A stretch of DNA of 64,000 bases, from positions 6,817 through 70,816 of the forward strand of contig JAVKIH010000011.1 in NCBI GenBank assembly GCA_031459625.1. Reading direction: 5' to 3'. Numbering within the stretch: position 1 is the first letter of the stretch; every line of letters starts with the position of its first letter. Made by a program: the position numbers and the translations under genes. The DNA is from Candidatus Geohabitans tengchongensis (lineage in GTDB: Bacteria; Sysuimicrobiota; Sysuimicrobiia; Sysuimicrobiales; Humicultoraceae). Under the pieces are notes generated by a model. The model made no database searches, had not been told where the DNA came from, and saw only the letters and a list, made by a program, of their open reading frames with translations. Shown piece by piece: positions 21,902-63,506 of this stretch.

Positions 21902-23524
21902 ATGGGTGAGCAGAGCGCAACGGGACAGTACCTGAAGGCGATCAAGCGCCGGTGGTGGATCCCCGTGTTGCTGGCGGCCGTCGCCGTCGTGGGCGTCTAC
22001 TACCGGATGGGGGCGGTGCCTCCAGTTTATCAGGCCAGCACGGTCCTCCTCGTGACGGCGCCACCCCTGATGCCGCCGGAGGTGCCCGGCGCGGAAGCGG
22101 GAGCGGCGGCGGGCGCGTTCCGGGCGACCCGCATCGACGCGGTGGAGGCGGACGTTCGGGAGCTCCTCCGTACCCGCGTCCTGGCCGAGCGCGTGGGACG
22201 CCGGGCTGGTCGGGCGGACATCGCCGAGGTGCAGCGCAGCCTCACCGTGACGAACCCGCGGGATACCAACCTGATTCGCATTCAGGCACGGGCCAGTACG
22301 CCGGCAGCGGCCGCCGGGTTGGCCAACGCGGCCGCCCGTGAACTGATCGGGTACTTCCGCCAGGCCAACTCCCATGATGCCCGGGAGGCCCGACGGTTCA
22401 TCGAGACCCAGCGGGGTGAGGTGCTGGAGCGCCTCCAGGCGGTGGAGCGGCGCCTGTTGCGGCTGCAGGGCCTGGCGACGATCGAGGGCGCCCCAGGGGC
22501 GATTGTGGGACGCTACTACGAGGCGCTGGGTGAGCTCGACAACACGCGGCGGACGATTCGGGAGCTGGATGCCCGCCTGGCCGCGGCGAGCCGCCGTCTG
22601 GGTCGGGAGAGCTCGACCCGAGTCTCGGAGACGGCGCGGCTGGACAACCCGGTCTTCCGTCAGATCCAGTCGCGGCTGGTCGAGTTGGAGATGCAGCGCA
22701 TCGAGCTGTCGCAGCAGTACACCGACGCTCACCCGCGAATGCAGCAGCTGGCGGCCCAGATCGATGAGATGCGTCGTCGGCTGGCTACGGAGACGGAGAC
22801 GCTGGTCGGTCGCCAGGTCCTCGCTCCCAACCCCATCCACGAGCGGCTGGTTGGTGATCTGGTCAACCTGCAGGTGGAGCGGGCGGGGGCGGTGGCGCGC
22901 GCCCAGGCCCTCGAGGCGGACGTCCAGCGGCGCCGGGCAGCGGTGCAGGCTCTCCCCGGCATCCAGGCCCGGCTGGGGGCGCTCATGCGCGAGCACGAGA
23001 TCCTGCAGAACAACTACCGGCTCCTCTCGGAGCGCCTCCAGGAGGCGGTGCTGCGCGAGAACGTGGCGGCGTACTTCCCCACGGGCCTGCAGGTGGTCGA
23101 CCCGGCGGTGGCGCCGCGGCGGCCGCAGCCGACCTCACTGCCCCGAACGGCCGCCGCTGGCGCGCTGGCGGGCGTCCTGCTCGGGTTGCTCGCCGCCCTC
23201 ACCCTGGAGACGGGCGACGACAAGATCCGCACCCGCGACGACGCCGAGCGGGCGCTGGGAGTGCCGGTGCTCGCCGAGATTCCCCACGCGGCGCCCCCGC
23301 GGCTCAGTCCGGCAGTCTGGGGCCTGGCCGTCCTGCTGGTCGTCGGTCTGCTCGGCGGCGGGCTGGGCCTGAGCGCCTATGCCGATGCCCGCCTCGGCCC
23401 CGGCCACCCGGCCGGAGCGCTCGCCCGGCTGCCGCTGGTCCGTCCGGCGGCCGATCGGGTGGCCCAGGCCGCGGGGTGGTTTGACGTCCAGCCGGTCCGC
23501 ACGACCGTCGAGACCGGCCGGTGA
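21902..23524 (+). CDS. polysaccharide co-polymerase (Wzz/GumC-type chain-length determinant, PCP family)
   Basis: N-terminal YLKAIKRRWWIPVLLAAVAVVGVYY (Wzz motif plus TM1), a long coiled-coil-like periplasmic region, and a second TM near the C-terminus. ATG 21902 has a better RBS than GTG 21863. Confidence 0.8.
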   Translation: MGEQSATGQYLKAIKRRWWIPVLLAAVAVVGVYYRMGAVPPVYQASTVLLVTAPPLMPPEVPGAEAGAAAGAFRATRIDAVEADVRELLRTRVLAERVGRRAGRADIAEVQRSLTVTNPRDTNLIRIQARASTPAAAAGLANAAARELIGYFRQANSHDAREARRFIETQRGEVLERLQAVERRLLRLQGLATIEGAPGAIVGRYYEALGELDNTRRTIRELDARLAAASRRLGRESSTRVSETARLDNPVFRQIQSRLVELEMQRIELSQQYTDAHPRMQQLAAQIDEMRRRLATETETLVGRQVLAPNPIHERLVGDLVNLQVERAGAVARAQALEADVQRRRAAVQALPGIQARLGALMREHEILQNNYRLLSERLQEAVLRENVAAYFPTGLQVVDPAVAPRRPQPTSLPRTAAAGALAGVLLGLLAALTLETGDDKIRTRDDAERALGVPVLAEIPHAAPPRLSPAVWGLAVLLVVGLLGGGLGLSAYADARLGPGHPAGALARLPLVRPAADRVAQAAGWFDVQPVRTTVETGR

Positions 23525-23534
23525 GGAGGCACGG

Positions 23535-24197
23535 ATGAGCAGGAACGGGTTCTACACCGTTACGGGGATGAAGCAGGGGTCCTCGTTCGTCGAAGCCTAC
23601 GGCTTGCTGGTGGTCAACCTGATCCTGGGGCACAACGGCACCCCGGTTCACTGCCTGGCCGTCACGGCGGCACGTGAGGGAGACGGGGCCACCACCACGG
23701 CGGTGAACATCGGGCTCACCCTGGCGCAGATCGGCCGTGCCACACTCCTGGTGGAGGCCAACCTGCGCACGCCAGCCTTTGAGAAAGTCTTCAAGCTGAA
23801 GGACGGTCCGGGCCTGGTTGACGTGCTGACCGGGGCGAAGCCGGTGAAGGAGGCCGTCCGGCCGACCGGAACCGCCAACCTGTCCGTGCTGACGGCCGGC
23901 AAGCCCAAGGGCTCTCCGCACGCACTGCTCGACCCCCGGCGGATCGAGACCCTGGTGCAGCAGCTGCGACAGGGATACGACTTCGTGGTCTTCGATACCG
24001 CGGCACTGTTGAAGTACCCGGACACCCTCAACCTGGTGAGGGCGGTGGATGGCATTCTCCTGGTGGTCCCGGTGCATGACGCCTCGGGACGGACTCAGCA
24101 GGAGATGCGCCGGCGGCTGGAGCGGGTTGAAGCCAAGGTGCTCGGGGCGGTGCTGAACCGCGTGCCACCGGCTCAGGTGGCGGCGGTCATGGGCTGA
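23535..24197 (+). CDS. BY-kinase-like P-loop ATPase domain protein (CpsD/EpsB-like) with degenerate Walker A
   Basis: Collinear with BY-kinase catalytic domains: LLVEANLR (Walker A'), FVVFDTAA (Walker B), DGILLVVP, LGAVLNRV. Walker A reads REGDGATT (Ala52 where Lys is expected, codon 23688-23690). There is no C-terminal Tyr cluster. Confidence 0.75.
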   Translation: MSRNGFYTVTGMKQGSSFVEAYGLLVVNLILGHNGTPVHCLAVTAAREGDGATTTAVNIGLTLAQIGRATLLVEANLRTPAFEKVFKLKDGPGLVDVLTGAKPVKEAVRPTGTANLSVLTAGKPKGSPHALLDPRRIETLVQQLRQGYDFVVFDTAALLKYPDTLNLVRAVDGILLVVPVHDASGRTQQEMRRRLERVEAKVLGAVLNRVPPAQVAAVMG

Positions 24198-24225
24198 GAC
24201 GGGACTGGAGGCCAGCGTCGCGACC

Positions 24226-24732
24226 GTGAGCTGCGCCTGGTATGCCGTTCAGACCAAGCCCCGGGCCGAGGAGCGCGTCTCGCGCTGGCTGCGCGAGCGT
24301 CACCACATTCGGGTCTTCCTGCCCAAGCTCGCCGTGCCCAAGTGGCGGCGCCAGCGACGCGTCACGGTCATCGAGACGCTCTTCCCGTCGTACCTGTTCG
24401 TGTGGATGTCGCTGGATCCGGGACCCTGGTACGCCGTGAAGTGGACGCCGGGGGTCCGGGCCATCGTCACCACCGGTGAGGTGCCGGTGCCTGTCCCCGA
24501 CGAAGCCATCCATTTCCTGATGGATCGGTCGGTGGACGGCGGCGTGATCCCCTGGCAGCCGCGGTACCCGGCCGGGTCCACTGTGCGCGTGCTGCGCGGA
24601 CCGTTTGCCGGCCTGGTGGGCATCCTGGAACGCCCCACCACCAGGCAGGAACGCGTCCGGGTGCTGCTGAGCCTCCTGGGCCGGCCGACGCCGGTGGAGG
24701 TGGACATCCTGGATCTCGAGGAGGTCTCCTGA
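24226..24732 (+). CDS. NusG paralog (RfaH/LoaP/UpxY-like specialised transcription antiterminator)
   Basis: NGN start WYAVQTKPRAEERVSRWL..FLPK, and KOW motif GSTVRVLRGPFAGLVGILE. 168 aa. Embedded in a polysaccharide locus. Confidence 0.8.
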   Translation: MSCAWYAVQTKPRAEERVSRWLRERHHIRVFLPKLAVPKWRRQRRVTVIETLFPSYLFVWMSLDPGPWYAVKWTPGVRAIVTTGEVPVPVPDEAIHFLMDRSVDGGVIPWQPRYPAGSTVRVLRGPFAGLVGILERPTTRQERVRVLLSLLGRPTPVEVDILDLEEVS

Positions 24733-24844
24733 CCGCTCCCGCCTCGGGAGTGTGGTCGGCACCGCGTAGACCACAACCTCCTCGCCACGTCGGGTGGAGA
24801 GTCCGACCACCCAACGGCGGAGCCATGCCCCTGACACCATCGCC

Positions 24845-26179
24845 ATGGCCACGCTGACCCGCGCGACCCACCGACCGATCCGCTCCTTCGACGAGCGGGT
24901 ACGGGCCCGCCAGGCCACGGTGGCGGTGGTCGGACTCGGGTATGTCGGCCTGCCGCTGGCCGTGGCGTATGCCGAGGCCGGCTTCCCCGTGGTAGGCGTC
25001 GACATCGACCCCGACAAGGTGGCCACGGTGAATGCCGGGCGCTCGCCCATCGGTGAAGTCTCCGACGCCACCATGGCTCAGGTCGTGGCCCACGGTCGCC
25101 TGCGAGCCACCGGCACCGCTGAAGCCCTGGCCGGGGCGGACGTGATCTTCATCTGCGTGCCCACGCCCTGCACGCGCAACAAGGAGCCGGACACGACCTT
25201 CATCCGCCAGGCGGCCGAGGGAATCGCTGCGCATGCTCGTCCCGACCAGCTCGTCATCCTCCGCAGTACGAGCTACCCCGGGACGACCGAGGAGCTGGTG
25301 CGGCCGGCACTGGAGCAGCGGGGGTGGCGGGTGGGTCGCGACCTCTTCCTGGCCTTCGCCCCCGAACGAGTGGACCCGGGACGTCGCGACTACGGGATCC
25401 GCAACACGCCCGTGCTCGTGGGCGGGTGCGACCCCGAGAGCACCCGGCGGGCCAGGCTGGTGCTCAGCCAGGTGACGGACCGCGTCGTCTCGATGTCCTC
25501 GCCGGCGGCGGCCGAGATGGCCAAGCTGCTGGAGAACGTCTTCCGCAATGTGAACATCGCGCTGGTGAACCAGCTGGCCGTGCTCTGCGACCGGATGGGG
25601 CTGAACATCTGGGAGATCGTCGACGCCGCGGCCACCAAGCCCTACGGCTTCCTGGCCTTCCGCCCCGGGCCGGGCGTGGGGGGGCACTGCATTCCGGTCG
25701 ACCCGTACTACCTGGCCTGGAAGGCCCGGGAGTACGACTTCCACATGGACTTCATCGAGCTGGCGGCCCGCATCAACGACGACATGCCCTATTACGTCGC
25801 CAACAAACTCATCCTCGCCCTCAATGGTGCACGCCCAGGTCGCCGGCGCCGGGTGCTGGTGCTGGGGGTGACGTTCAAGCGGGACGTCGACGACTACCGG
25901 GACTCCCCGGCGCTGAAGGTCATCGAGCTGCTCACGAAAGCGGGCGTGCAGGTGGACTACTACGACCCCTATGTGGCCGTCCTGCCGCTGAACGGGAGGA
26001 CGCTGCGGCGGCGGCCACTCACCCCGCAGCTCCTGCGGGCGGTGGACTGCGTGGCCATCCTCACGGACCACTCCACCGTCGACTACGCTCGGGTCGTCCG
26101 CCACGCCCGCAGGGTCTTTGACGCCCGGAATGCCACTGCCCACGTCCGCCGGGAGCGCGACAAGATCATCACCCTCTGA
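24845..26179 (+). CDS. nucleotide-sugar dehydrogenase (UDP-ManNAc/UDP-GlcNAc dehydrogenase-like, WecC/Cap5O type)
   Basis: VAVVGLGYVGLPLAVAYA Rossmann motif, GPGVGGHCIPVDP catalytic Cys motif, C-terminal UDPG_MGDH domain. The start could instead be GTG 24794. Confidence 0.85.
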   Translation: MATLTRATHRPIRSFDERVRARQATVAVVGLGYVGLPLAVAYAEAGFPVVGVDIDPDKVATVNAGRSPIGEVSDATMAQVVAHGRLRATGTAEALAGADVIFICVPTPCTRNKEPDTTFIRQAAEGIAAHARPDQLVILRSTSYPGTTEELVRPALEQRGWRVGRDLFLAFAPERVDPGRRDYGIRNTPVLVGGCDPESTRRARLVLSQVTDRVVSMSSPAAAEMAKLLENVFRNVNIALVNQLAVLCDRMGLNIWEIVDAAATKPYGFLAFRPGPGVGGHCIPVDPYYLAWKAREYDFHMDFIELAARINDDMPYYVANKLILALNGARPGRRRRVLVLGVTFKRDVDDYRDSPALKVIELLTKAGVQVDYYDPYVAVLPLNGRTLRRRPLTPQLLRAVDCVAILTDHSTVDYARVVRHARRVFDARNATAHVRRERDKIITL

Positions 26180-27377
26180 CCCCCGCCAGGCCCCGGCGCC
26201 GCTCGGGGCCGGGCCGGCCGTCCTGCAGGTCATCCAGGAGGGGACGCTGCGCGGGGCTGAGGTCTTCGCCCTGGACCTGTCGGCCGCGCTGCGCCGGGCG
26301 GGCTGGTCGGTGGTGCTGCTGAGTCTCTTCCGGGTCGAGGCGAGTTTCGCCGAGGCGGCTGCCGCGGCAGAGGTGCCGCTCGTGACGGTGGCGGCGGGAG
26401 GCCGGGCGGCCGGCTTCGACCCTCGGGTGCTGGTCGGAGTGCGCAGGCACATCGTGCGCGGGCGGTTCGGCGTGGTCCAGGCCAACGGTGCGGCGACCCT
26501 GAAATACCTGGCTGCGGCCCGGCTGACGGGCCGCGAGCCCTGGACGCTCGTCTACCGGGCCATCGGGATAGGCTCGTTCTGGCGCCGGGGGTGGCGCGGC
26601 CGCCTCTACCGTCCGTTGCTGCAGCGGCCCCACCGGATCGTCGCGGTCTCCGGGGCGGTGCGGGACGACCTGACGGCCTCGGGGGTTTCGCCGCAGCGGG
26701 TCGTGGTGATTCCGAACGCGGTGGACCCCGCCCGCCTGGCCGGCCACCCGCTAGAGCGGGCTGCCGTCCGCTCCCGCCTGGGCATCGGGGAGGAGGAGCG
26801 CGTCCTGGTCTACGCAGGGAGCTTTTCGCCCGAAAAACAGGTCCCCGCTGTCCTCGAAGTGGTTCGGCGGTGCCGTGCCAGCGGCCTCCCGGTGCGTGCG
26901 ATCCTCGTCGGGGACGGCCCCGAGCGCGGTGTCCTGGCAGAGGCGCTGGGCCACGACGGTCTGCGGCAGGCTGTCGCGCTCCTGCCACCCCACCCGCGCG
27001 TGGCGCCGTTCCTGCGCGCAGCCGACCTCTGCCTGCTGCCCAGCCGGACAGAGGGCATGCCCGCGCTGCTCATCGAGGCCGGCCTCCTCGGCGTCCCCGC
27101 CGTCGCCTACCGCGTGGGCGGGGTGGGGGAGGTGGTCGAGAACGGCGTCACCGGCACCCTGGTCCCGCCGGGAGACCTCTCCGGGCTGGCGGCCGCCGTC
27201 ATGGCCCTCCTGCGCGATGACGCCCGCCGTCAGGCCATGGGGCGGGCCGCGGTCGCCCGCTGCCGGCGGTTTACGATCGACGCGGTGGCCAGCACCTATG
27301 CGGCGCTCTACCAGGGCCTGATGCCCCATGGGGTCGGGCGCCCATCTACAGGCGATGGAGCGGGGCGATGGGCGTGA
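26118..27377 (+). CDS. glycosyltransferase family 4 (GT-B)
   Basis: C-terminal LLPSRTEGMPALLIEAGLLGVPAVAYRVGGVGEVV (E-x7-E-like region). The N-terminus is uncertain: ATG 26118 overlaps the upstream gene by 62 nt, and the conserved domain begins near 26220. Confidence 0.75.
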   Translation: MTPGMPLPTSAGSATRSSPSDPRQAPAPLGAGPAVLQVIQEGTLRGAEVFALDLSAALRRAGWSVVLLSLFRVEASFAEAAAAAEVPLVTVAAGGRAAGFDPRVLVGVRRHIVRGRFGVVQANGAATLKYLAAARLTGREPWTLVYRAIGIGSFWRRGWRGRLYRPLLQRPHRIVAVSGAVRDDLTASGVSPQRVVVIPNAVDPARLAGHPLERAAVRSRLGIGEEERVLVYAGSFSPEKQVPAVLEVVRRCRASGLPVRAILVGDGPERGVLAEALGHDGLRQAVALLPPHPRVAPFLRAADLCLLPSRTEGMPALLIEAGLLGVPAVAYRVGGVGEVVENGVTGTLVPPGDLSGLAAAVMALLRDDARRQAMGRAAVARCRRFTIDAVASTYAALYQGLMPHGVGRPSTGDGAGRWA

Positions 27378-28495
27378 CACCGCACCGCCTGCGGGTGCTG
27401 CTGGTGATCAAAGGGCTGGGCGTGGGAGGTGCGGAGCGGCTCCTCGAGCGGGCCATCCCCTACCTGGACCGGGAAACCTTCGAGTACCAGGTGGCCTATC
27501 TGCTGCCCTGGAAGGATGCCCTCGTCCCGCCGTTCCGGGCCGCCGGCATCCCGGTGCACTGCCTGGAGTACCGCGCTCCGCTGGACCTGCGCGTGATCCG
27601 TCGGTTCCGTGCCCTCGTTCGGCGTGAGCGGTTCGCCCTGGTCCACGCTCACCTCCCTGTGGCCGGGCTGCTGGCACGGCTGGGCCGGCGCCTGGGAGAT
27701 GTCCCGCGGGTGATCTACACCGAGCACGGCCTGCCGTCCCACTATCGCTGGCCCACCCGGTGGGCCAACGTCCTCACCTACCGGTGGGCTGACGCCGTGA
27801 TCGCGGTCTCCGAGGCGGTGGCCGCGGGCGTGCGTCCCTACATCAAGGGGGACCGTCCGCGCCTGGTGACGATCGTGAACGCGGTCGACGCCGACGGGAT
27901 GACGACCACCCCGGAAAGCCGTGAGGCGGTACGCAGGGAATTCGGGATCCCGGCGGACGCACCGCTCGTCGTAACGGTCGGCAATCTCCGTCCGGTCAAG
28001 GGCCACGCCGTGCTGCTGACGGCGGCGCGGCGGGTGCTGGCGGCCGAGCCCCGGGCGCGTTTCCTCATCGTGGGGGTGGGCCCATTGGCTGAGCACCTGC
28101 CGCGGGAGGCCCGGCGCCTCGGGCTGGATGGCCAGGTGATCTTCACGGGCTTCCGCGCCGATGCGACCTCGATTATCGCGGCGTCGGACGTCTACGTCCT
28201 GCCATCGCTCGACGAGGGGCTCCCCGTCAGCCTGCTAGAGGCGATGGCCCTGGGGCGGGCGGTCGTGGCTACGCGCGTCGGCGGGATTCCCGAGGTCGTC
28301 CTCCCGGACCGCACCGGGATTCTGGTGGAGCCCAACGACCCGGAGCGCCTGGCCTGGGAAGTGCTGGGACTGCTGCAGACCCCCGAGCGTCGTCGGCAAC
28401 TGGGCGAGGCCGCACAGGCGGCGGCCCGACAGCGGTACGGTATGGGGCCCATGGTGACGGCCATCGAGCAGCTCTACCGGGAGGTGGTCGCGTAA
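27368..28495 (+). CDS. glycosyltransferase family 4 (GT-B)
   Basis: LRVLLVIKGLGVGGAERL N-terminus, and VLPSLDEGLPVSLLEAMALGRAVVATRVGGIPEVV C-terminal motif. Confidence 0.85.
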   Translation: MGVTPHRLRVLLVIKGLGVGGAERLLERAIPYLDRETFEYQVAYLLPWKDALVPPFRAAGIPVHCLEYRAPLDLRVIRRFRALVRRERFALVHAHLPVAGLLARLGRRLGDVPRVIYTEHGLPSHYRWPTRWANVLTYRWADAVIAVSEAVAAGVRPYIKGDRPRLVTIVNAVDADGMTTTPESREAVRREFGIPADAPLVVTVGNLRPVKGHAVLLTAARRVLAAEPRARFLIVGVGPLAEHLPREARRLGLDGQVIFTGFRADATSIIAASDVYVLPSLDEGLPVSLLEAMALGRAVVATRVGGIPEVVLPDRTGILVEPNDPERLAWEVLGLLQTPERRRQLGEAAQAAARQRYGMGPMVTAIEQLYREVVA

Positions 28496-29493
28496 TGCCG
28501 CGGCCGGCCTTCCTGGTCACGATCGACACCGAGGCCGACGACCTCTGGGCCCGGCCGCGGCACCTCACGACGCGCAACACGGCGGCGCTGCCGCGCTTCC
28601 AGGCGCTCTGTGAGCGCTACGGGATCCGCCCGACCTACCTGGCGACCTACGAGGTGGCTGTGGACCCGGTCTTCCGCGACTTCGGGCTCGACCTGCTGCG
28701 CCGCGGGGCAGGGGAGATCGGCATGCACCTCCACGCCTGGACCACTCCGCCGATCGTCCCGCTGACGGACGACGACCTGACCGCGCAGCCGTACTTGATC
28801 GAGCACGACACCGAGGTCATGCGGCTGAAGATCGGCACGCTGACCCGGCTGCTCGAAGAGACATTCGGCCGCCGCCCCGTGAGCCACCGCGCCGGCCGCT
28901 GGGCTCTGGACGCCCGCTATGCCCGTCTCCTGGTGGAGTTCGGCTACCGGGTCGACGCCACGGTCACGCCCCACGTCTCCTGGCAGGACCACCGGGGGGC
29001 TCACGGGGGCGGGCCAGATTACCGGGGCTTCCTCTCGACGCCGTACTTCGTCGACCTCGAGGACATCCGCCGGCCCGGGGCCTCGCCGCTCCTCGAAGTC
29101 CCGGTGACCGTGCTCCCGCGCTCACGCCCGCGCCCGGCGGCCCTGGAGCGGCTTTTCGCCCGCAGCCGTACGGGCCGCCGCCTGCTGGACCGGTACCTGC
29201 CTGCGGTCTGGTGGCTGCGCCCCAACGGACGGAACGGGGGGCGGCTGCTCGAGATCGTCCAGCGGGGCATCGACCGCGGCGTGGCGCACCTGACGATGGT
29301 CCTGCACTCCTCGGAACTGGCGGTCGGCCAGAGCCGGGTGTCGCGCACCCGCAAGGCCCTGGAAGACCTCTACCGCGACCTGGAGCGCCTCTTCGCCGCA
29401 GCATCCCGGTCTTGCTGGCCGGCCACGCTGGCGGAATTCTCCGCCGCCTGGGCGGGGCGGATGGCGCCGGTCGGCGCGGCCGCAGTGGGATGA
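28495..29493 (+). CDS. polysaccharide deacetylase-fold protein (WalW-like, glycoside hydrolase/deacetylase beta/alpha-barrel superfamily)
   Basis: N-terminal FLVTIDTEADDLW, GEIGMHLHAW and HRAGRWAL resemble the divergent deacetylase-like family common in EPS loci. TAATG overlap with the upstream gene. Confidence 0.6.
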   Translation: MPRPAFLVTIDTEADDLWARPRHLTTRNTAALPRFQALCERYGIRPTYLATYEVAVDPVFRDFGLDLLRRGAGEIGMHLHAWTTPPIVPLTDDDLTAQPYLIEHDTEVMRLKIGTLTRLLEETFGRRPVSHRAGRWALDARYARLLVEFGYRVDATVTPHVSWQDHRGAHGGGPDYRGFLSTPYFVDLEDIRRPGASPLLEVPVTVLPRSRPRPAALERLFARSRTGRRLLDRYLPAVWWLRPNGRNGGRLLEIVQRGIDRGVAHLTMVLHSSELAVGQSRVSRTRKALEDLYRDLERLFAAASRSCWPATLAEFSAAWAGRMAPVGAAAVG

Positions 29494-42245: not shown

Positions 42246-42959
42246 ATGGACCGTCGCCGCCTGCTCGACACGATGCTGGCCGCCGTCCTCCTGGTGCTGG
42301 CCGCTCCGGTGATGCTCCTGCTCGCGCTGGCCAACCGCTCCCTGTCGGGGCGCGCCTTCTTCGTCCAGGAGCGGTTGGGCCAGGACCTGCGGCCGTTCCG
42401 GCTGTTCAAGTACCAGACGATGGTCGACGGCGCGGACCAAGGCTCCACGGTCACGGTGGCCCGGGACGCGCGCGTGACCCGGTTCGGCGGGGTGCTGCGG
42501 ACGCTCAAGCTCGACGAGCTGCCCCAGCTCATCAACGTCCTGCGCGGGGAGATGACCTTCGTCGGCCCCCGCCCGTTGACGCCCAATGAGATCGCCGCCA
42601 TTCCACGCCCGCTGGCCGCCCTGGTCTACCGCCAGCCACCGGGACTCACCGGGATCGCCAGCCTGGCCTTCCATGACGAAGAGCGCCTGCTGGCGCAGGC
42701 CGCCGACCCATTGCGGACATACTTCAACGAGATCCTGCCCCGGAAGATCGCCGTCGAGCTGGCCTACGTACAGCGCCGGACGTGGGCGACCGACCTGCTG
42801 ATCCTGGCCTTCACGCCCTTCGCGCCGTTGTGGCCGCGCCTTCGCCGCGCGCTGGTGGCGTGGCTGGTCCCCGACGCCGCCGCCTGGTGGCCGGCGAAGG
42901 GCCGTGCCGCCGACAGGACCGACGCGCAGGAACTGCCGGTCCGGGTGTCGTTCAAGTGA
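42246..42959 (+). CDS. undecaprenyl-phosphate sugar phosphotransferase (small monotopic PGT, PglC/WbaP C-domain-like)
   Basis: Re-entrant helix LDTMLAAVLLVLAAPVMLLLALA, then FFVQERLG, FRLFKYQTM and LDELPQLINVLRGEMTFVGPRP. Confidence 0.9.
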   Translation: MDRRRLLDTMLAAVLLVLAAPVMLLLALANRSLSGRAFFVQERLGQDLRPFRLFKYQTMVDGADQGSTVTVARDARVTRFGGVLRTLKLDELPQLINVLRGEMTFVGPRPLTPNEIAAIPRPLAALVYRQPPGLTGIASLAFHDEERLLAQAADPLRTYFNEILPRKIAVELAYVQRRTWATDLLILAFTPFAPLWPRLRRALVAWLVPDAAAWWPAKGRAADRTDAQELPVRVSFK

Positions 42960-58064: not shown

Positions 58065-59639
58065 GTGACCACCGCAGCTCCCGTACCCTCTGCGCTGTCC
58101 TCGGGCTCCGTGCCGATCGAAGAGGAGCCCTACGTGCACCTGCGCCTGGAGGACGGTGGGGTGACGGTGCGGGGGAACCCGGCGGTGACGTTGGGTCACC
58201 GGGTTCCCCGGGGAGCGGGGGAGAAGCCGGACGGCGTCTTCGCAGCCTGGTCCTGGGACGGCCGTGTCCTGCGCGTGGAGAACGACCGCTACGGGTGCTA
58301 TCCGCTGTACTATGCCGCCGCTCCGGGCGAGCTCCGCCTCTCTCCCTCCATCCCGCGGCTTCTGCGCGCCGGGGTGTCGCGGGAAGTGGACGAGACGGCC
58401 CTCGGCGTCTTCCTGCGGCTGGGCTACTTTCTGGACGATGAAACACCGTTCCGGGCCATCCGGGCCGTGCCGCCCGACGCGACGTTCATCTGGCGCGACG
58501 GGCAGCTCGAGGTCAGCGGGCGCTACGCCGGCAGCCCGGAGCAGACCATCACCCGGAGGGCCGCCATCGACGCCTACGTCGAGCTGTTCCGGCAGGCGAT
58601 CCGCCGCCGTCCCCCGACGGAGGAGGCGGTGGTGACCCTGAGCGGCGGGCGGGATTCCCGGCACATCCTCCTGGAACTGTGCGCACAGGGCACCCCACCC
58701 CGGCGGTGCGTCACCACCTACCGGTCCTTTCCGTCCATGCTGGGCCGTCACGCGCCCAGCGAGGACGTGGAGCTCGCCCGGGCCCTGGCCGAAGCCGTCA
58801 GGGTGGAGCACGTGCTGGTCCCGCAGTCCCCTTCGGCGCTGCGCGCCGAGCGCCGCAAGAACCTGCTGACCGGCTTCTGCACAGACGAGCATGGGTGGTA
58901 CGTCGCGGTGGCCGACTACCTGAAGGGCCACGCCACGGCCGTGTACGACGGGATCGCCGGCGACGGGCTCTCCGAGGACCCGCTGCTCGACGCGGAGGGG
59001 CTGCGCCTCTACCGGGAGGGGCGGCTGGGCGAGCTGGCAGACCGCTGGCTCGACGAGCGGGAGGAGGCTCTCCTCCGCACGCTCATCCCGCCGATGTGGG
59101 CGGGGGCGGCCGACCGCGACCGGGTCCACGCGCGCCTGGTGGCGGAGCTGCGCGCCTTCGCGGGCGCGCCCAATCCGGTGGGGACCTTCCTCTTCTGGAG
59201 CCTCACCCGCCGCGAGACCGCCCTGGCCCCCTACGGCCTGCTGCGCGGGGTCGACCTCGTCTACAGTCCCTACCTGGACCACGATCTCTACGACTTCCTG
59301 ACGTCGCTGCCTGGGGAGATGCTGCTGGGCCACCGGTTCCACACGGAGACGATCGCGCGGGGGCATCCCCGCTACGCCGCCTTTCCCTACCCCTCGAAGG
59401 ATGCGGCGGCCCTGCGGCGGCCGGTGCGTCATCGGTCCTTCACCCTGGAGGTGCTCCGCGAGGTGCTCGCCCGGCCCACGGCGTTCCGGGCGACGCTGGT
59501 CCCCACACTCCTCGCCGCGCTGGCCCGGGGAGCCCCCCGCTGGGTGTTGCCGGTCGTCGTCTACCTCATGCAGCTCGAGGAGGTCTGCCGCGACCTGCCG
59601 GCGTGGTGGCGGGCCGGTGAGCCCGGCGAGGGGGCCTGA
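58065..59639 (+). CDS. asparagine synthetase-family amidoligase (AsnB/WbpS-like) lacking the N-terminal Cys nucleophile
   Basis: PP-loop VVTLSGGRDSRHILLEL in the synthetase domain. An N-terminal Ntn-like region is present, but the protein starts VTTAAP... with no Met-Cys-Gly start. Confidence 0.75.
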   Translation: MTTAAPVPSALSSGSVPIEEEPYVHLRLEDGGVTVRGNPAVTLGHRVPRGAGEKPDGVFAAWSWDGRVLRVENDRYGCYPLYYAAAPGELRLSPSIPRLLRAGVSREVDETALGVFLRLGYFLDDETPFRAIRAVPPDATFIWRDGQLEVSGRYAGSPEQTITRRAAIDAYVELFRQAIRRRPPTEEAVVTLSGGRDSRHILLELCAQGTPPRRCVTTYRSFPSMLGRHAPSEDVELARALAEAVRVEHVLVPQSPSALRAERRKNLLTGFCTDEHGWYVAVADYLKGHATAVYDGIAGDGLSEDPLLDAEGLRLYREGRLGELADRWLDEREEALLRTLIPPMWAGAADRDRVHARLVAELRAFAGAPNPVGTFLFWSLTRRETALAPYGLLRGVDLVYSPYLDHDLYDFLTSLPGEMLLGHRFHTETIARGHPRYAAFPYPSKDAAALRRPVRHRSFTLEVLREVLARPTAFRATLVPTLLAALARGAPRWVLPVVVYLMQLEEVCRDLPAWWRAGEPGEGA

Positions 59640-59644
59640 CGTCC

Positions 59645-60484
59645 GTGTACCACGTTACCCTCGACGGCTTCCGCGGGTACCGTTCGCGCTTCGACGACAT
59701 TCGGCTCGTCCAGGAAGTCCTGGAGGGACTGCCCGTGATCCTCGAGTTGCAGCCGACGATGCCGGCGTTCCTGCTCCCCTACTACAACGGCGTGGTCCCC
59801 GAGGACTGCGGCATCAGCGCGTTCGTGTTCCTGGAAGGCGGCCACTGCACCATCCACACCTTCTCCTTCCGTGAGACGTATTTTGCTGACGTCGTCTCGC
59901 CGCGGGCGTTCGATGCCGAGCGGCTGTATCGGCACTTGCAGGCCGCCTTCCCGTGCGCCATCACCGCTGTCAGTGCCCTGTCCCGTGACGGGACTCCGGT
60001 CGAGGCGCCCGAGGCGGACCCGGAGGCCGACTTCGGCCCGCACTACTTCCTGGACCTCATGGACTACGCCGGCCCGGCCCACCTGGACGAGGTGTTCGAC
60101 CTGTTCGACCGGCTGCCGGGGGTGATCGGGATGACACCGATCATGCGTCCGTACGTCCTGCGGGGCCGGACGGCGGACGGCCGGCAGCACGTTAGCGCGA
60201 TGACCATGATCGCGGAGAGTCACCTCGCCCTGCACGTCTTCCCCGGGGACCGTCGGGCGCACTTCGACCTGTTCTCGTGTCGCTTCTTCGACCACACCGC
60301 GGTCATCCCGCGGATCCGGCGGGAGTTGCCCGGGACGATCCGCGGGGAAGCGCTCATCGCCCGAGGGCGGCGCTATCGCTACCTGCGGATGGACGGGCCG
60401 GGACACACGGCCCAGGCCCGGGCGTGGGTCAGGGTCTTGCCGGCCTCGGCGGCCGCGGAGGAGGTCGGCGCATCCTCCGGGTGA
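59645..60484 (+). CDS. fused tandem-duplicated S-adenosylmethionine decarboxylase-fold (pyruvoyl-dependent decarboxylase) homolog
   Basis: The C-terminal half carries VSAMTMIAESHLALHVFPGDRRAHFDLFSC, matching the class 1 AdoMetDC self-processing motif (..ISESHLTIHTWPE...DLFTCG). The N-terminal half carries the degenerate ISAFVFLEGGHCTIHTFSFRETYFADVVS. The two halves align to each other. Confidence 0.7.
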   Translation: MYHVTLDGFRGYRSRFDDIRLVQEVLEGLPVILELQPTMPAFLLPYYNGVVPEDCGISAFVFLEGGHCTIHTFSFRETYFADVVSPRAFDAERLYRHLQAAFPCAITAVSALSRDGTPVEAPEADPEADFGPHYFLDLMDYAGPAHLDEVFDLFDRLPGVIGMTPIMRPYVLRGRTADGRQHVSAMTMIAESHLALHVFPGDRRAHFDLFSCRFFDHTAVIPRIRRELPGTIRGEALIARGRRYRYLRMDGPGHTAQARAWVRVLPASAAAEEVGASSG

Positions 60485-60488
60485 TCCG

Positions 60489-61628
60489 ATGACCGCCAGT
60501 CCGTCCATGAGGCTGCGACCATCCGTGGCCTTGGTCCACCACGGGCAGTTCTCCGGGTGCACGGCATCGCTGCGCGGCGCCCTGGCCGCGCGGATGTCGG
60601 TGGTCGACCTGGACCTGCTCCGCCTGGCGCGGCGCCCCGCGTTGCTGCGCGCCCGGGTGCGCGCGACGTGGGAAGCGCAGCGAACGGGCAGGGGGACGCC
60701 CTGGGTGAAGACGGGGGCCTGGTCCCGGGCCTGTCAGCAGTGGGCGGAGGAGCACGGGTTCCTTGCGCCACACCGTCCCGTCCTGTTCCTGCAGACCCTC
60801 TCAGCCTTCGTGCTGGACAGGGCGGGGCCACGGTACGCCGTCTACACCGATCGGGTCAGCGCCGAGGGGGCGACCCGGGACGGGGTCTACGCGTCGCGGT
60901 TCACACCGGCGTGGCGGGCCCGGGAGCGGGTGTTCCTCCAGCGGGCGGAACGGGTCTTCGTGATGGGTCCGGCAACACAAGACGTGCTGGAACGGGAGTA
61001 CGGCGTCCCGCGGTGGCGCGTCAGTGTGGTCGGCGGCGGGCCCAACGTCCCGCTCACCGGGCCCGTCCAAGCCGACCGGTGCCGTGCCCTGCTCTTCGTG
61101 GGGCGGGAGTGGGAGATGAAGGGCGGCCCGCTGGTGTTGCGCGCCTTCCAGCAGCTGCGCCGTCGGTTCCCCGACCTGGAACTCCTCATCGCGGGCTGCA
61201 GGCCGTTCGTCCGGCCCCCGGCGGGAGTGCGGATGTTGGGCTGGGTGCCTCGCGAGGCCATGGACGACGTCTACTCCGCGGCCCAGATCCTGGTGGTCCC
61301 CGGTTACAAGGAAGCATTTGGACACGCCTTCGTCGAGGGGCTCATCAAGGGCCTGCCCTGTGTGGCCTCGTGTGGAGGGAACCAGGCCGACCTGATCGCC
61401 GATGCCGGGCGCTGCGTCCCCCCCGGAGACGTGGGGGCGTTGCGCGTGGCGCTGGCCGAGGTCATCGCCCGCTACCCGGAGTACCGGCGTCGGGCCGTGC
61501 GACGGGGCCGGGAGCTGCGGGAACGCTTCGCCTGGGACCGCATTGCCGGCCGCATCCTGGGGGAGTTCCTGGAGGCGGCCCCGGTGTCCGGGGAGGACCC
61601 GGCGCGCCCGACACCAGCGCGGTCCTGA
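60489..61628 (+). CDS. glycosyltransferase (GT-B, GT4-like); paralog of 35398..36516
   Basis: LLFVGREWEMKGGPLVLRAF...LELLIAG and VVPGYKEAFGHAFVEGLIKGLPCVAS. Collinear with the 35398 product, including the N-terminal half. Confidence 0.75.
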   Translation: MTASPSMRLRPSVALVHHGQFSGCTASLRGALAARMSVVDLDLLRLARRPALLRARVRATWEAQRTGRGTPWVKTGAWSRACQQWAEEHGFLAPHRPVLFLQTLSAFVLDRAGPRYAVYTDRVSAEGATRDGVYASRFTPAWRARERVFLQRAERVFVMGPATQDVLEREYGVPRWRVSVVGGGPNVPLTGPVQADRCRALLFVGREWEMKGGPLVLRAFQQLRRRFPDLELLIAGCRPFVRPPAGVRMLGWVPREAMDDVYSAAQILVVPGYKEAFGHAFVEGLIKGLPCVASCGGNQADLIADAGRCVPPGDVGALRVALAEVIARYPEYRRRAVRRGRELRERFAWDRIAGRILGEFLEAAPVSGEDPARPTPARS

Positions 61629-61644
61629 CGATGGGAGGCCGATC

Positions 61645-62553
61645 ATGGACGTGGGGACCACGCGTCTCGTGAACCCCGAGCTGCGCGCCCGCCTCGATGG
61701 CGGGGCGCGCCCGCCGTGTCGCATCCGGCGCCCGGGCCATCTGGCCCTCGAGGTGGCGGACCTGGGCCGGGCGGTGGACTTCTACACCCGGATCCTCCGC
61801 CTGGTGCGTGTCGAAGAGGGGGAGGGCGTCGTCTACCTCCGGTCGCAGTTCGAGCACCACTGCCTGGAGCTGCATGGCACCGGCCGGTCGGGACTCCATC
61901 ACGCCGGATGGGAGACGGACAGCGACCAGGAGACCGAGGCTCTGCACGATGCCCTGGCCCGGCGGGGCGTCCCGGTGCGCGACGCCCCGCCCGAGCCGGG
62001 CCGGCGGGGCCGGGCCTTCCAGTTCCAGGACCCCATGGGGTTCTGGCACGAGGTCTACCGGGCCATGGACCGCCTCCCGGTGCTGGTGAGCAACGGTCCC
62101 TTCCCCGTCCTGCGCCAGGCCCACTTCGCCTTCAACTCCCCGGACGTGGATCGCGACCTGGAGTTCTTCCGGGCGGTAGGGTTTCGGGTCTCGGACTGGA
62201 GTCCGGGCCGGCAGGCCTCGCTCCGCTGCCTCCCGGAGCACCACAACATCTCGCTCTTTGCCCACGGGCGCGCACGCTTCCACCACCAGGGCTTTGACAT
62301 CGGCTCCTGGGAGCACCTGAAGGGGATCCTCGACTGGATCGCCCACCAGGAGTACCCGGTCGAGGTGGGCCCCGTGCGTCACGCTCTGGGCAATAACATC
62401 TCGGTCTACCTGCTCGACCCCGACCGTTTCCGCATCGAGCTGTTCTGCGAGATGGAGCAGATCCTCGACGACGAGGATCACGAGAACCGCCGCCAGCCGC
62501 CGCTCTTCGACCTCTGGCGCCGCCAGCCCGTCCCGGCGGACTTCAGGGAGTAG
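61645..62553 (+). CDS. two-domain VOC-superfamily protein, type I extradiol (catechol 2,3-) dioxygenase-like
   Basis: Two glyoxalase/VOC modules (HLALEVADLGRAVDFY... and AHFAFNSPDVDRDLEFF...). Candidate 2-His-1-carboxylate ligands lie in HFAF, HHQGF and RIELF. Confidence 0.7.
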   Translation: MDVGTTRLVNPELRARLDGGARPPCRIRRPGHLALEVADLGRAVDFYTRILRLVRVEEGEGVVYLRSQFEHHCLELHGTGRSGLHHAGWETDSDQETEALHDALARRGVPVRDAPPEPGRRGRAFQFQDPMGFWHEVYRAMDRLPVLVSNGPFPVLRQAHFAFNSPDVDRDLEFFRAVGFRVSDWSPGRQASLRCLPEHHNISLFAHGRARFHHQGFDIGSWEHLKGILDWIAHQEYPVEVGPVRHALGNNISVYLLDPDRFRIELFCEMEQILDDEDHENRRQPPLFDLWRRQPVPADFRE

Positions 62554-62555
62554 GC

Positions 62556-63506
62556 GTGAGCGCGGAGCCCGCCCCGGCCGTCAGCGTCGTCCTGCCCACC
62601 TACAACCGGGCCGCAGTGCTCCCGCGGGCCGTCGAGAGCACGTTGCGGCAGACGTTTCCGGATTGGGAGCTCGTCATCGTGGACGACGGCTCAGTGGACG
62701 CGACAGGTGCAGTCCTGCAGCAGTTCGTCGACGGACGGATCCGCTACGTCCGAGGGGAGCACAACCGCGGCGTGGCGGCGGCACGCCAGGTGGGCCTCAC
62801 ACTTGCCCGCGCTCCCTATGTCACCTTCCTGGATTCCGACGACGAGTACCGCCCGGAGAAACTGGCCGCGCAGGTCCGTGCGCTCCGGCAGCGAGGGGAG
62901 GCGGTGGAGTGCGGGATGCGGCTCGTCCTGCCCGACGGGCGTGAGCGGGACCTGGCCCCGGTGCTCTACCGCAAGTCGCCGGAACAGTTCGGGCTGGTCG
63001 CCCGCGGGATCAACCTGGCCACCCTGCTGATTCCCCGCGAGGCTGCGCTCGCGACCGGGTTCGATGAAGCGATCCGCTTCTCGATGTCGGACTGGGACTT
63101 CGTCCTCCGGCTCCTGCGTCGCTGCCGGGTGACCGCCGTCGTGCCGCAGCCGCTGGTCGTCCACTACAGCCACCGGGGGCCGCGCATGTCCACCGCCGCG
63201 AACCTGATGCGCGGGCTGGAATACGTGCTGGCCAAGTACGAGGGGACGGAGGTCCTGTCGCCGCGCGTGCGGGCGCGATTGCTCCATCGCCTGGCGGCGT
63301 ACTGCATCGGACGGGGAGACCTGCCGCGGGCACGGCAGCTCCTGCGGCGCTCGGTCGCGTCCTGGCCGTGGAGCGCTCCGCGCTGGCTCATGCTGGCGGC
63401 AGTCGCCCTCCAGCCGGTGGCCTTCGACCGATTCTACGCCGTCTACGGACGGGTGGCGCGAGTGCTGCAGCGCCTTCGCGTCCGGACGGGGGGCGTCCTG
63501 GCATGA
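62556..63506 (+). CDS. glycosyltransferase family 2
   Basis: VSVVLPTYNRAAVLPRAVESTLRQTF, LVIVDDGSVDAT, FLDSDDEY. Confidence 0.85.
   Translation: MSAEPAPAVSVVLPTYNRAAVLPRAVESTLRQTFPDWELVIVDDGSVDATGAVLQQFVDGRIRYVRGEHNRGVAAARQVGLTLARAPYVTFLDSDDEYRPEKLAAQVRALRQRGEAVECGMRLVLPDGRERDLAPVLYRKSPEQFGLVARGINLATLLIPREAALATGFDEAIRFSMSDWDFVLRLLRRCRVTAVVPQPLVVHYSHRGPRMSTAANLMRGLEYVLAKYEGTEVLSPRVRARLLHRLAAYCIGRGDLPRARQLLRRSVASWPWSAPRWLMLAAVALQPVAFDRFYAVYGRVARVLQRLRVRTGGVLA

Follow-up and report, generated by a model that had tools for sequence, protein, structure and literature searches.

The window analysed here, a 64,000-nucleotide (64-kb) stretch of contig JAVKIH010000011.1 of Candidatus Geohabitans tengchongensis, contains at positions 59645-60484 of the plus strand a complete open reading frame (ORF) with a GTG start and a TGA stop, which encodes a protein of 279 amino acids (31.2 kDa). 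This gene, hereafter referred to as the fused decarboxylase gene, specifies a proenzyme in which the fold of S-adenosylmethionine decarboxylase (AdoMetDC) occurs twice, first as a catalytically dead N-terminal repeat and then as a C-terminal repeat with intact catalytic residues (live). It is located in a string of co-directional genes, between a gene for an AsnB-like adenylating enzyme and a gene for a family 4 glycosyltransferase (GT4). A protein identical to its product has been called on 12 public contigs.

The presence of two repeats was supported by several comparisons. Against the Pfam profile PF02675 (AdoMet_dc; gathering score, 25 bits), the whole 279-aa protein scored 66.6 bits in two stretches. 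When the halves were scanned separately, residues 1-128 gave 32.5 bits (E = 1.2e-7; profile positions 1-106 of 107) and residues 129-279 gave 37.9 bits (E = 2.4e-9), so that both halves pass the profile alone. With hhalign, a profile of the N-halves of 30 family members was aligned to the corresponding profile of their C-halves, and the two repeats paired over 109 columns with a probability of 98.7% (E = 1.7e-16). In this register, G65-G66-H67 of the N-terminal repeat corresponds to E191-S192-H193 of the C-terminal repeat, H71 to H197, D82 to D208, and P86 to C212.

The N-terminal repeat (residues 1-114; 59645-59986, plus strand), delimited from the Pfam match of residues 1-128 and the hhalign alignment, retains the AdoMetDC fold but contains neither the processing Ser nor the Cys. 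Its highly conserved motifs are PYYNG (residues 45-49), DCG (54-56), GGH (65-67), and HTFS (71-74). The codons for G65-G66-H67 (59837-59845, plus strand) occupy the position of the Glu-Ser-His processing motif, and because no Ser is encoded there, no pyruvoyl group can form at this site. The two repeats are joined by a poorly conserved linker (residues 115-128; 59987-60028, plus strand; majority-residue frequency of 0.28 in alignment A1), in which the confidence of the structural model also dips. The C-terminal repeat (residues 129-245; 60029-60379, plus strand), supported by its own Pfam match, by alignment to the Thermotoga maritima AdoMetDC structure 1TLU, and by its invariant columns, carries the motifs DFGPH, GMTPIMRP, IAESH, H197, FDLFSC, and RG (residues 240-241). 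The codons for E191-S192-H193 (60215-60223, plus strand) contain the predicted autoprocessing site E191/S192, with the Ser192 codon being AGT (60218-60220), and the codon for C212 is TGT (60278-60280, plus strand). Near the processing Ser, the window protein reads MTMIAESHLALHVF, compared with a consensus of IAESHISxH for the family. The C-terminal tail (residues 246-279 and the stop codon; 60380-60484, plus strand) is weakly conserved except for W261 and was modelled with low confidence.

When the family profile was aligned with sequences from the Protein Data Bank (PDB), S192, H197, and C212 were matched to S63, H68, and C83 of T. maritima AdoMetDC (1TLU), all of which are essential for processing and catalysis (Li et al., PMC10407285). 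An AlphaFold2 model built with 25 homologs (mean predicted local distance difference test score [pLDDT], 87.3; predicted template modelling score [pTM], 0.84) consists of two consecutive beta-alpha-beta4-alpha-beta units. In a Foldseek search of the PDB with this model, the best set of matches comprised the AdoMetDC structures of T. maritima and Aquifex (target template modelling [TM] scores of 0.73-0.82), and the top matches were the T. maritima structures 1tmi, 1tlu, and 1vr7 (target TM scores of 0.80-0.82; root mean square deviations [rmsd] of 1.8-2.1 Å). Alignments with the eukaryotic class 2 enzymes 1mhm, 9pbb, and 5tvf were poor (TM scores of 0.25-0.30; rmsd of 12-13 Å), too poor for the same inter-repeat packing as in class 2 enzymes to be demonstrated. 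The product of 59645-60484 consists of two tandem copies of the class 1b AdoMetDC fold, the N-half being dead and the C-half intact.

This agrees with the original prediction, made from the sequence, in which the ORF had been described as an internal duplication of the AdoMetDC fold. The full processing and catalytic signature had been assigned to the C-terminal repeat and the loss of both the processing Ser and the Cys to the N-terminal one; the matched residues given above, with G66 and P86 at the two lost positions, bear this out, and the Ser192 codon lies where it had been placed. The check that had been proposed, namely profile searches with the two halves separately and structure prediction, gave an AdoMetDC profile match for each half and a model resembling T. 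maritima AdoMetDC. The further claim that one polypeptide contains one dead and one live protomer is upheld by the concordance of the Pfam matches of the halves, the 1TLU alignment, Foldseek, and hhalign.

The fused architecture is not restricted to this genome. A search of 5.8 billion clustered proteins identified 408 related clusters at E<=1e-3, nearly all of 262-300 aa and with at least 94% query coverage, and a HMMER scan of 1.84 billion representatives identified 509 representatives at the 50%-identity level. Relatives sharing 50-62% identity with the window protein were found in Rokubacteria/Methylomirabilota, Deinococcus, Armatimonadota, Sorangium and other Myxococcota, Aminicenantes, and Bacillota. 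In the HMMER scan, full-length fused relatives extended down to approximately 28-30% identity, beyond which only ordinary single-domain SpeD homologs were detected. The source databases label family members only as 'S-adenosylmethionine decarboxylase' or 'S-adenosylmethionine/arginine decarboxylase-like enzyme', and NCBIfam contains no model specific to the fused family. A family member was also found at 10001-10786 of L071, a contig of a metagenome-assembled genome (MAG) labelled Alphaproteobacteria, the binning of which is unverified; the order of its dead and live halves is the reverse of that in the eukaryotic enzyme. Li et al. 2023 (PMC10407285) found no SpeD fusion in alphaproteobacteria.

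Conservation was scored in a close set of 25 sequences and a broad set of 30 family members. In both sets, the C-half keeps A-E/Q-S-H, H197, and S-C212, and S192, H193, and C212 are invariant in all 30 members of the broad set. The N-half keeps G-G-H and never contains the Cys: G66 is present in 29 of 30 members and H67 in 30 of 30, with a Ser at position 66 in a single member. The family motifs of the dead half are PYYNG, EDCG(I/V)S, and GGHxTxHTFS. In the 25-sequence set, the majority-residue frequency is 0.71 for the N-half and 0.66 for the C-half, and the numbers of invariant columns are 32 and 25, respectively. The dead N-half is thus conserved at least as strongly as the live C-half, and the dead-N/live-C fusion is a genuine architecture of ancient origin and wide distribution. 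All of the single-domain proteins matching the N-half contain a normal IAESH site, and no stand-alone, prozyme-like GGH protein was present among them, indicating that the GGH form is seen only inside the fusion. Two family members, P0190 (480 aa) and P0195 (571 aa), possess an additional N-terminal region of approximately 250-330 aa with no Pfam match, and their dead halves contain P-I-G-H instead of G-G-H.

By homology, the C-terminal repeat is predicted to cleave itself by serinolysis between E191 and S192, which would yield a 21.4-kDa beta chain and a 9.8-kDa alpha chain. The beta chain would comprise the whole dead repeat together with the first strands of the live repeat, and Ser192, at the N-terminus of the alpha chain, would become the pyruvoyl cofactor, with H197 and C212 probably acting in processing and protonation as in T. 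maritima AdoMetDC. In the class 1b AdoMetDC homodimer, the active sites reportedly lie at the protomer interface and contain residues from both chains, as Toms and co-workers are said to have described in 2004. A fused pair with a single Ser would form one complete, asymmetric active site, in which the N-terminal repeat would replace the second protomer of the homodimer and would either supply the trans half of the site or stabilise it. The strong conservation of the N-half suggests that the N-terminal repeat most likely stands in for the second protomer in this manner.

The neighbourhoods of related genes point to the use of arginine by the family. ORFs in the fetched loci were called with a crude caller filtered by G+C content at third codon positions (GC3), and key neighbours were confirmed with Pfam or NCBIfam. 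In the Rokubacteria/Methylomirabilota, to which the nearest relatives of the window protein belong (59-62% identity), a gene for a deoxyhypusine synthase/SpeY-like protein (PF01916) is located downstream on the same strand in 19-20 loci, with gaps of 5 nt in L088 and approximately 20-60 nt elsewhere. Bacterial homologs of deoxyhypusine synthase (SpeY) condense two agmatines en route to homospermidine (PMC13625781), and the speY-clustered SpeD homologs studied by Li et al. 2023 (PMC10407285) were all arginine decarboxylases devoid of AdoMetDC activity. In P0258 (493 aa), a SpeD homolog of the single-domain type, in which the IAESH site is normal, is fused to a deoxyhypusine-synthase domain (PF01916); this Rosetta-stone fusion provides an independent tie between SpeD-type decarboxylases and SpeY-type enzymes.

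Two other agmatine-consuming enzymes are encoded next to more distant relatives. In a subfamily with 28-45% identity, represented by 80 metagenome loci from gut, rumen, termite, and bioreactor samples (GC contents of 23-49%), an arginase-family gene is located directly upstream on the same strand in 55 of the 80 loci as judged by clustering and in 61 as judged by tblastn, at least 1 kb of upstream sequence being available in only 66 of the 80. The distance between the two genes is mostly -7 to +14 nt. The upstream gene passes the agmatinase model TIGR01230 (201.7 versus a cutoff of 174.3) and fails the arginase model (99.7 versus 227.6). In a separate subclade, a gene for agmatine deiminase (TIGR03380; 385.4 versus a cutoff of 381.8) overlaps the stop codon of the decarboxylase gene in L089, and it resides in the same gene string as the decarboxylase gene in about five further loci. 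A gene for the aminopropyltransferase SpeE, by comparison, was detected within 8-10 kb in only two of 160 family loci. The coupling to three agmatine-consuming enzymes in three subclades, together with the near absence of speE, is most economically explained by arginine decarboxylation as the family function. The original prediction had named a routine link between homologs and spermidine synthase genes, as the sign of an ordinary polyamine role, among the grounds for its own refutation; such a role is indicated for the family by its coupling to agmatinase, agmatine deiminase, or SpeY-like genes, so that this ground applies in spirit, although speE is not the partner.

Other genes also recurred beside family members. 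In the subclade linked to agmatine deiminase (L089, L092, L094, L099, and L101-L106), the three genes preceding the decarboxylase gene on the same strand (positions -1 to -3) encode conserved proteins of approximately 740, 297, and 630-660 aa with no Pfam match. In eight Bacillota loci (L046, L047, L052, L064, L069, L072, L080, and L082), the first gene downstream encodes a polysaccharide deacetylase (PF01522), followed in four of the eight by a gene for a PAS-GGDEF-HD protein; this pattern may reflect synteny within one clade.

The gene organization around the fused decarboxylase gene in the window is as the original prediction had described it, with AsnB-like, glycosyltransferase, and VOC genes separated by short spacers. 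The upstream gene (58065-59639, plus strand) encodes a 524-aa AsnB-like adenylating enzyme with the PP-loop SGGRDS and without an N-terminal Cys nucleophile, and a spacer of 5 nt separates its stop codon from the start of the decarboxylase gene. The enzyme belongs to a widespread 'asparagine synthase-related' family (729 matches) found in varied contexts, including Massilia and Acidobacteria, and it may adenylate a carboxylate for attack by a nucleophile that is not derived from glutamine. Downstream, co-directional genes for GT4, a two-domain VOC/extradiol-dioxygenase-like protein, and a family 2 glycosyltransferase (GT2) occupy 60489-63506 (plus strand), with GT4 ending at 61628, the VOC gene at 61645-62553, and the GT2 gene at 62556-63506. 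The successive spacers from the AsnB-like gene to the GT2 gene are 5, 4 (40 if GT4 starts where it was called), 16, and 2 nt, and a promoter and terminator scan detected no promoter-like or terminator-like site between the operon genes. The operon runs on past the window; after GT4, the order is the VOC gene, two GT2 genes, a methyltransferase gene, and two adjacent genes of approximately 730 codons, located just past the 3' end of the window (15705-20110 of L001), each of which encodes a fusion of a GFO/IDH/MocA oxidoreductase and an NAD-dependent epimerase/dehydratase.

The VOC protein matches HpaD (1.2e-38) and catechol 2,3-dioxygenase (6e-33), both far under the respective cutoffs; an extradiol-dioxygenase-like VOC protein is an unusual member of a glycan operon, and it is under strong constraint, as described below. 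Additional polysaccharide genes, detected by tblastn and related to those for Wzz, UDP-glucose dehydrogenase, GT4, and Bac_transf proteins, are present in the window at about 23500-28500 and at 42246-42959, and are separated from the decarboxylase operon by CoA-transferase, acyl-CoA dehydrogenase, and ABC-transporter genes (approximately 49.9-57 kb). The N-half of the decarboxylase gene shows a slight dip in GC content (0.67 versus approximately 0.72), and the GC3 of the gene resembles that of its neighbours, giving no clear sign of recent transfer.

Whether this context is shared by the family was assessed by tblastn searches of the ±10-kb flanks around 80 genomic family loci with all 17 window neighbours. 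The only matches in these flanks were generic ABC and ECH genes and one GFO gene; the AsnB-like, GT4, VOC, GT2, and methyltransferase queries yielded none, and the neighbours in the 80 metagenome loci were also other than those in the window. A conserved glycan context for the family was thus ruled out, because the window neighbours do not recur at family loci. In one Bacillota genome (L086), an exopolysaccharide (EPS) cluster is located 183 nt downstream of a family member, but as this adjacency is confined to that genome, it was rejected as a recurring link. Conversely, the AsnB-like homologs in Massilia and Acidobacteria have unrelated neighbours and no AdoMet_dc gene beside them.

Over 17.5 kb, two metagenome contigs of a sister lineage, L172 and L173, align colinearly to the window (88-95% nucleotide identity), with all of the flanking genes intact. 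In the slot of the fused decarboxylase gene, these contigs contain only a 131-aa ORF (9584-9979 in L172 and 5055-5450 in L173), which segment mapping by blastn (window versus L172) showed to be the window gene minus two in-frame deletions. One deletion of 276 nt, at a CCG microhomology, removes residues ~41-132. The other, of 168 nt, removes residues ~155-210 and lies between two 12-nt direct copies of TTCGACCTGTTC, which encode FDLF and are located on the plus strand of the window at 60095-60106 and 60263-60274, each copy marking one end of the deletion. The remnant lacks PYYNG, GGH, GMTPIMRP, AESH, and H197 and so cannot be an enzyme; the glycan operon therefore persists in this lineage without the decarboxylase. 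Neither deletion shifts the frame or changes the original stop codon, perhaps so that translational coupling to the GT4 gene is maintained.

A closer relative, L176, is 97% identical to the window and has the same gene arrangement. Between the two copies, the decarboxylase gene shows 15 nonsynonymous and 10 synonymous differences, giving a ratio of nonsynonymous to synonymous substitution rates (omega) of 0.51, which is higher than those of the AsnB-like (0.23), GT4 (0.17), and VOC (0.07) genes (Fisher p = 0.011). The gene appears to be under relaxed constraint in this clade. None of the 15 substitutions falls on a family-invariant position, and the window copy, judged by its residues, still looks functional. 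Taken together, the lack of recurrence of the neighbours, the deletions in the sister lineage, and the raised omega indicate that the operon placement says little about function, and the decarboxylase gene most likely has only an incidental place in the glycan operon of this genome.

The window protein could be a bona fide AdoMetDC that supplies decarboxylated S-adenosylmethionine (SAM) to an aminopropyltransferase whose gene is elsewhere in the genome. It has the Pfam match and the database names of such an enzyme, and its catalytic Ser, His, and Cys align with those of T. maritima AdoMetDC. All true AdoMetDCs have a Pro after the second His (HTWPE), whereas SpeDA, the SpeD-derived arginine decarboxylases, vary at this position (PMC10407285); the Pro is kept in the window protein as P200, but it is not conserved family-wide, being present in 20 of 25 sequences of the close set and in 8 of 30 of the broad set. 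The score against the AdoMetDC equivalog model TIGR03330 (39.5 bits) is about half of the cutoff (75.65). No aminopropyltransferase gene was found in the Pfam gene list for the ±10-kb region or, by tblastn, in the whole 64-kb window, as the original prediction had noted for the vicinity; the tblastn query was an Escherichia coli SpeE sequence, which was validated by its recovery of a gene passing TIGR00417. The two family loci with speE in their flanks are L051, where it is 8.7 kb away, and L055 (1868-4656, from a Bacillota MAG), where the fused gene is directly followed by speE (TIGR00417, 361) and then by an agmatinase gene, speB (TIGR01230, 321); L055 is the only one of the 160 loci with an adjacent aminopropyltransferase gene. 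The absence of speE from the flanks of the other 158 loci, and the coupling of relatives to agmatinase, agmatine deiminase, and SpeY, which is the pattern of neofunctionalised arginine decarboxylases in PMC10407285, make a SAM-decarboxylating role unlikely, and the caution in the original prediction that SAM should not be assumed as the substrate is supported. Still, SpeD homologs have switched substrates several times (PMC10407285), and many family members are orphans without informative neighbours, so that a pyruvoyl decarboxylase for ornithine, lysine, or another amino acid, or a role other than decarboxylation, was also considered. The signature diagnostic of ornithine-specific SpeDC, which comprises Gln, Thr, Phe, and Tyr near the processing site (QLIETSLxSGHF...Y; PMC10407285, Fig. 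S5), is absent around the processing Ser from both the window protein and the family consensus, in which the motif is instead of the IAESHxxxH type. All three of the conserved partner enzymes use agmatine rather than ornithine-derived precursors of putrescine, and the arginase-family gene upstream of many relatives meets the agmatinase cutoff and not that for arginase. A different substrate or role is accordingly regarded as very unlikely.

The remaining alternatives concern the local context. The original prediction had proposed that the enzyme produces an amine that decorates the glycan; in this scheme, agmatine or another amine would be amide-linked to a glycan carboxylate by the AsnB-like neighbour, which, having lost the N-terminal Cys and kept the PP-loop, might take an exogenous amine. 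The co-directional genes with their 5-nt and 4-nt spacers and no promoter-like or terminator-like sites between them, the same arrangement in the 97%-identical relative, and the EPS cluster beside the Bacillota member are consistent with it. Against it stand the absence of the AsnB-like, glycosyltransferase, VOC, and methyltransferase genes from all 80 genomic loci, the restriction of the EPS adjacency to one genome, and the AsnB-like homologs that have no AdoMet_dc neighbour. The loss of the catalytic core in the sister lineage from an otherwise intact operon, the relaxed constraint relative to the neighbouring genes, and the coupling to agmatine enzymes elsewhere argue in the same direction, and the proposal is considered improbable. 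A specific version, in which the fused decarboxylase was recruited to the glycan operon, the AsnB-like enzyme joins agmatine through an amide bond to a sugar carboxylate in a surface polymer, and the sister lineage lost this decoration through the two deletions, would be a long shot; if true, the guanidinium-bearing glycan would be a modification not described before, and a SpeD-derived enzyme would have acquired a new physiological use. The same deletions beside intact neighbours, and an omega exceeding those of three neighbours, could instead mark the gene as a decaying passenger in this lineage, with the frame still open and the need for the enzyme or its activity lost. The window copy, however, keeps every family-invariant residue, the differences from L176 have spared all of these positions, and an omega of 0.51, based on small counts, is still below 1, so that decay of the window copy seems decidedly doubtful.

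The reading favoured here is that the window gene encodes a pseudo-dimeric, pyruvoyl-dependent arginine decarboxylase of polyamine metabolism with a dead N-terminal and a live C-terminal repeat, a reading given somewhat better than even chances for this gene and greater confidence for the family as a whole. The enzyme would be a SpeDA-like arginine decarboxylase, neither an AdoMetDC nor a glycan-modifying enzyme, and would most likely convert L-arginine to agmatine for putrescine or homospermidine synthesis. Several observations weigh against this assignment. Arginine specificity is suggested by gene neighbourhood and by the precedent of single-domain SpeDA, and no gene for agmatinase, agmatine deiminase, or a SpeY homolog was detected in the 64-kb window or its 7-kb extension. 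The agmatinase link belongs to one large subclade (50% single-linkage) and thus counts as one evolutionary association, and the genes of Sorangium, Armatimonadota, Aminicenantes, and Myxococcota are orphans with uninformative neighbours. The arrangement in L055 fits an AdoMetDC as well as an arginine decarboxylase role, the window protein keeps the AdoMetDC-type Pro, and the tight packing of the operon in the window is compatible with a local role.

SpeD-derived arginine and ornithine decarboxylases have been recognised only recently, and the bacterial fusions described so far, on which a model for the origin of the eukaryotic enzyme was based, place a live AdoMetDC first. In the window family, the same fold has been fixed as a single-chain pseudo-dimer in the opposite order, with the dead copy equally constrained. 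Members of the family occur widely in bacteria from soil, groundwater, gut, and rumen, under the generic and mistaken label 'S-adenosylmethionine decarboxylase'. If its members are arginine decarboxylases, they would fill missing first steps of the polyamine pathway in many genomes, including those of gut Bacillota with a two-gene agmatinase-decarboxylase cassette, and their reassignment would correct a systematic annotation error. They would also allow the contribution of a dead protomer to an active site at an interface to be studied in a natural setting. The window gene itself should not be taken as evidence of an amine-decorated glycan.

Among known systems, an earlier SpeD-derived arginine decarboxylase, from Sulfolobus, was reportedly described by Giles and Graham in 2008. 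No published dead-N/live-C SpeD fusion or fused SpeDA was found in openly licensed PMC papers and bioRxiv, and no protein of Capsulimonas, the source of a characterised SpeDA, was present among the best 120 relatives of the Armatimonadota member. The SpeDA enzymes (Li, Liang, Phillips and Michael, JBC 2023, PMC10407285) resemble the window family in having the class 1b fold and Ser-His-Cys counterparts of S63/H68/C83, in the lack of conservation of the AdoMetDC-specific Pro, and in that their genes, like those of the relatives of the window protein, cluster with speY, speB, or aguA rather than with speE. Characterised SpeDA enzymes are described as single-domain homodimers, whereas in the window family a permanently dead N-terminal copy is fused to the live one. 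Published bacterial SpeD1-SpeD2 fusions include those of Desulfotignum phosphitoxidans and Ca. Omnitrophica OLB16 and that of Victivallis vadensis, which has a degraded second domain (PMC10407285). These fusions and the window family share two SpeD-homologous domains in one chain of approximately 270-320 aa, and in the V. vadensis type, which undergoes a single cleavage, one domain has lost the processing residues, as in the window family. In the SpeD1-SpeD2 fusions, however, the live AdoMetDC is N-terminal, the ornithine decarboxylase or degraded domain is C-terminal, and the gene lies upstream of speE, whereas in the window family the order is reversed, no speE is adjacent in the window, the partners use agmatine, and the dead half is conserved rather than degraded.

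The eukaryotic class 2 AdoMetDCs (human and potato) are, like the window protein, single-chain pseudo-dimers of class 1b-like halves with one pyruvoyl site. In class 2 enzymes the pyruvoyl Ser is in the N-terminal half, giving a small beta and a large alpha chain, whereas a large beta chain (21.4 kDa) and a small alpha chain (9.8 kDa) are predicted for the window protein, and no sequence relationship between the two is detectable beyond the fold. In the Trypanosoma brucei AdoMetDC/prozyme pair (Velez et al., eLife 2016, PMC5201418), a dead paralog and a live one form a single functional active site, as is proposed here. The T. brucei proteins are separate class 2 polypeptides, with the dead partner acting as an allosteric activator, and the units of the window family are class 1b-like and covalently fused, so that the resemblance is an analogy only. 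The fused family thus extends the recently described theme of SpeD-derived pyruvoyl decarboxylases and is not categorically new.

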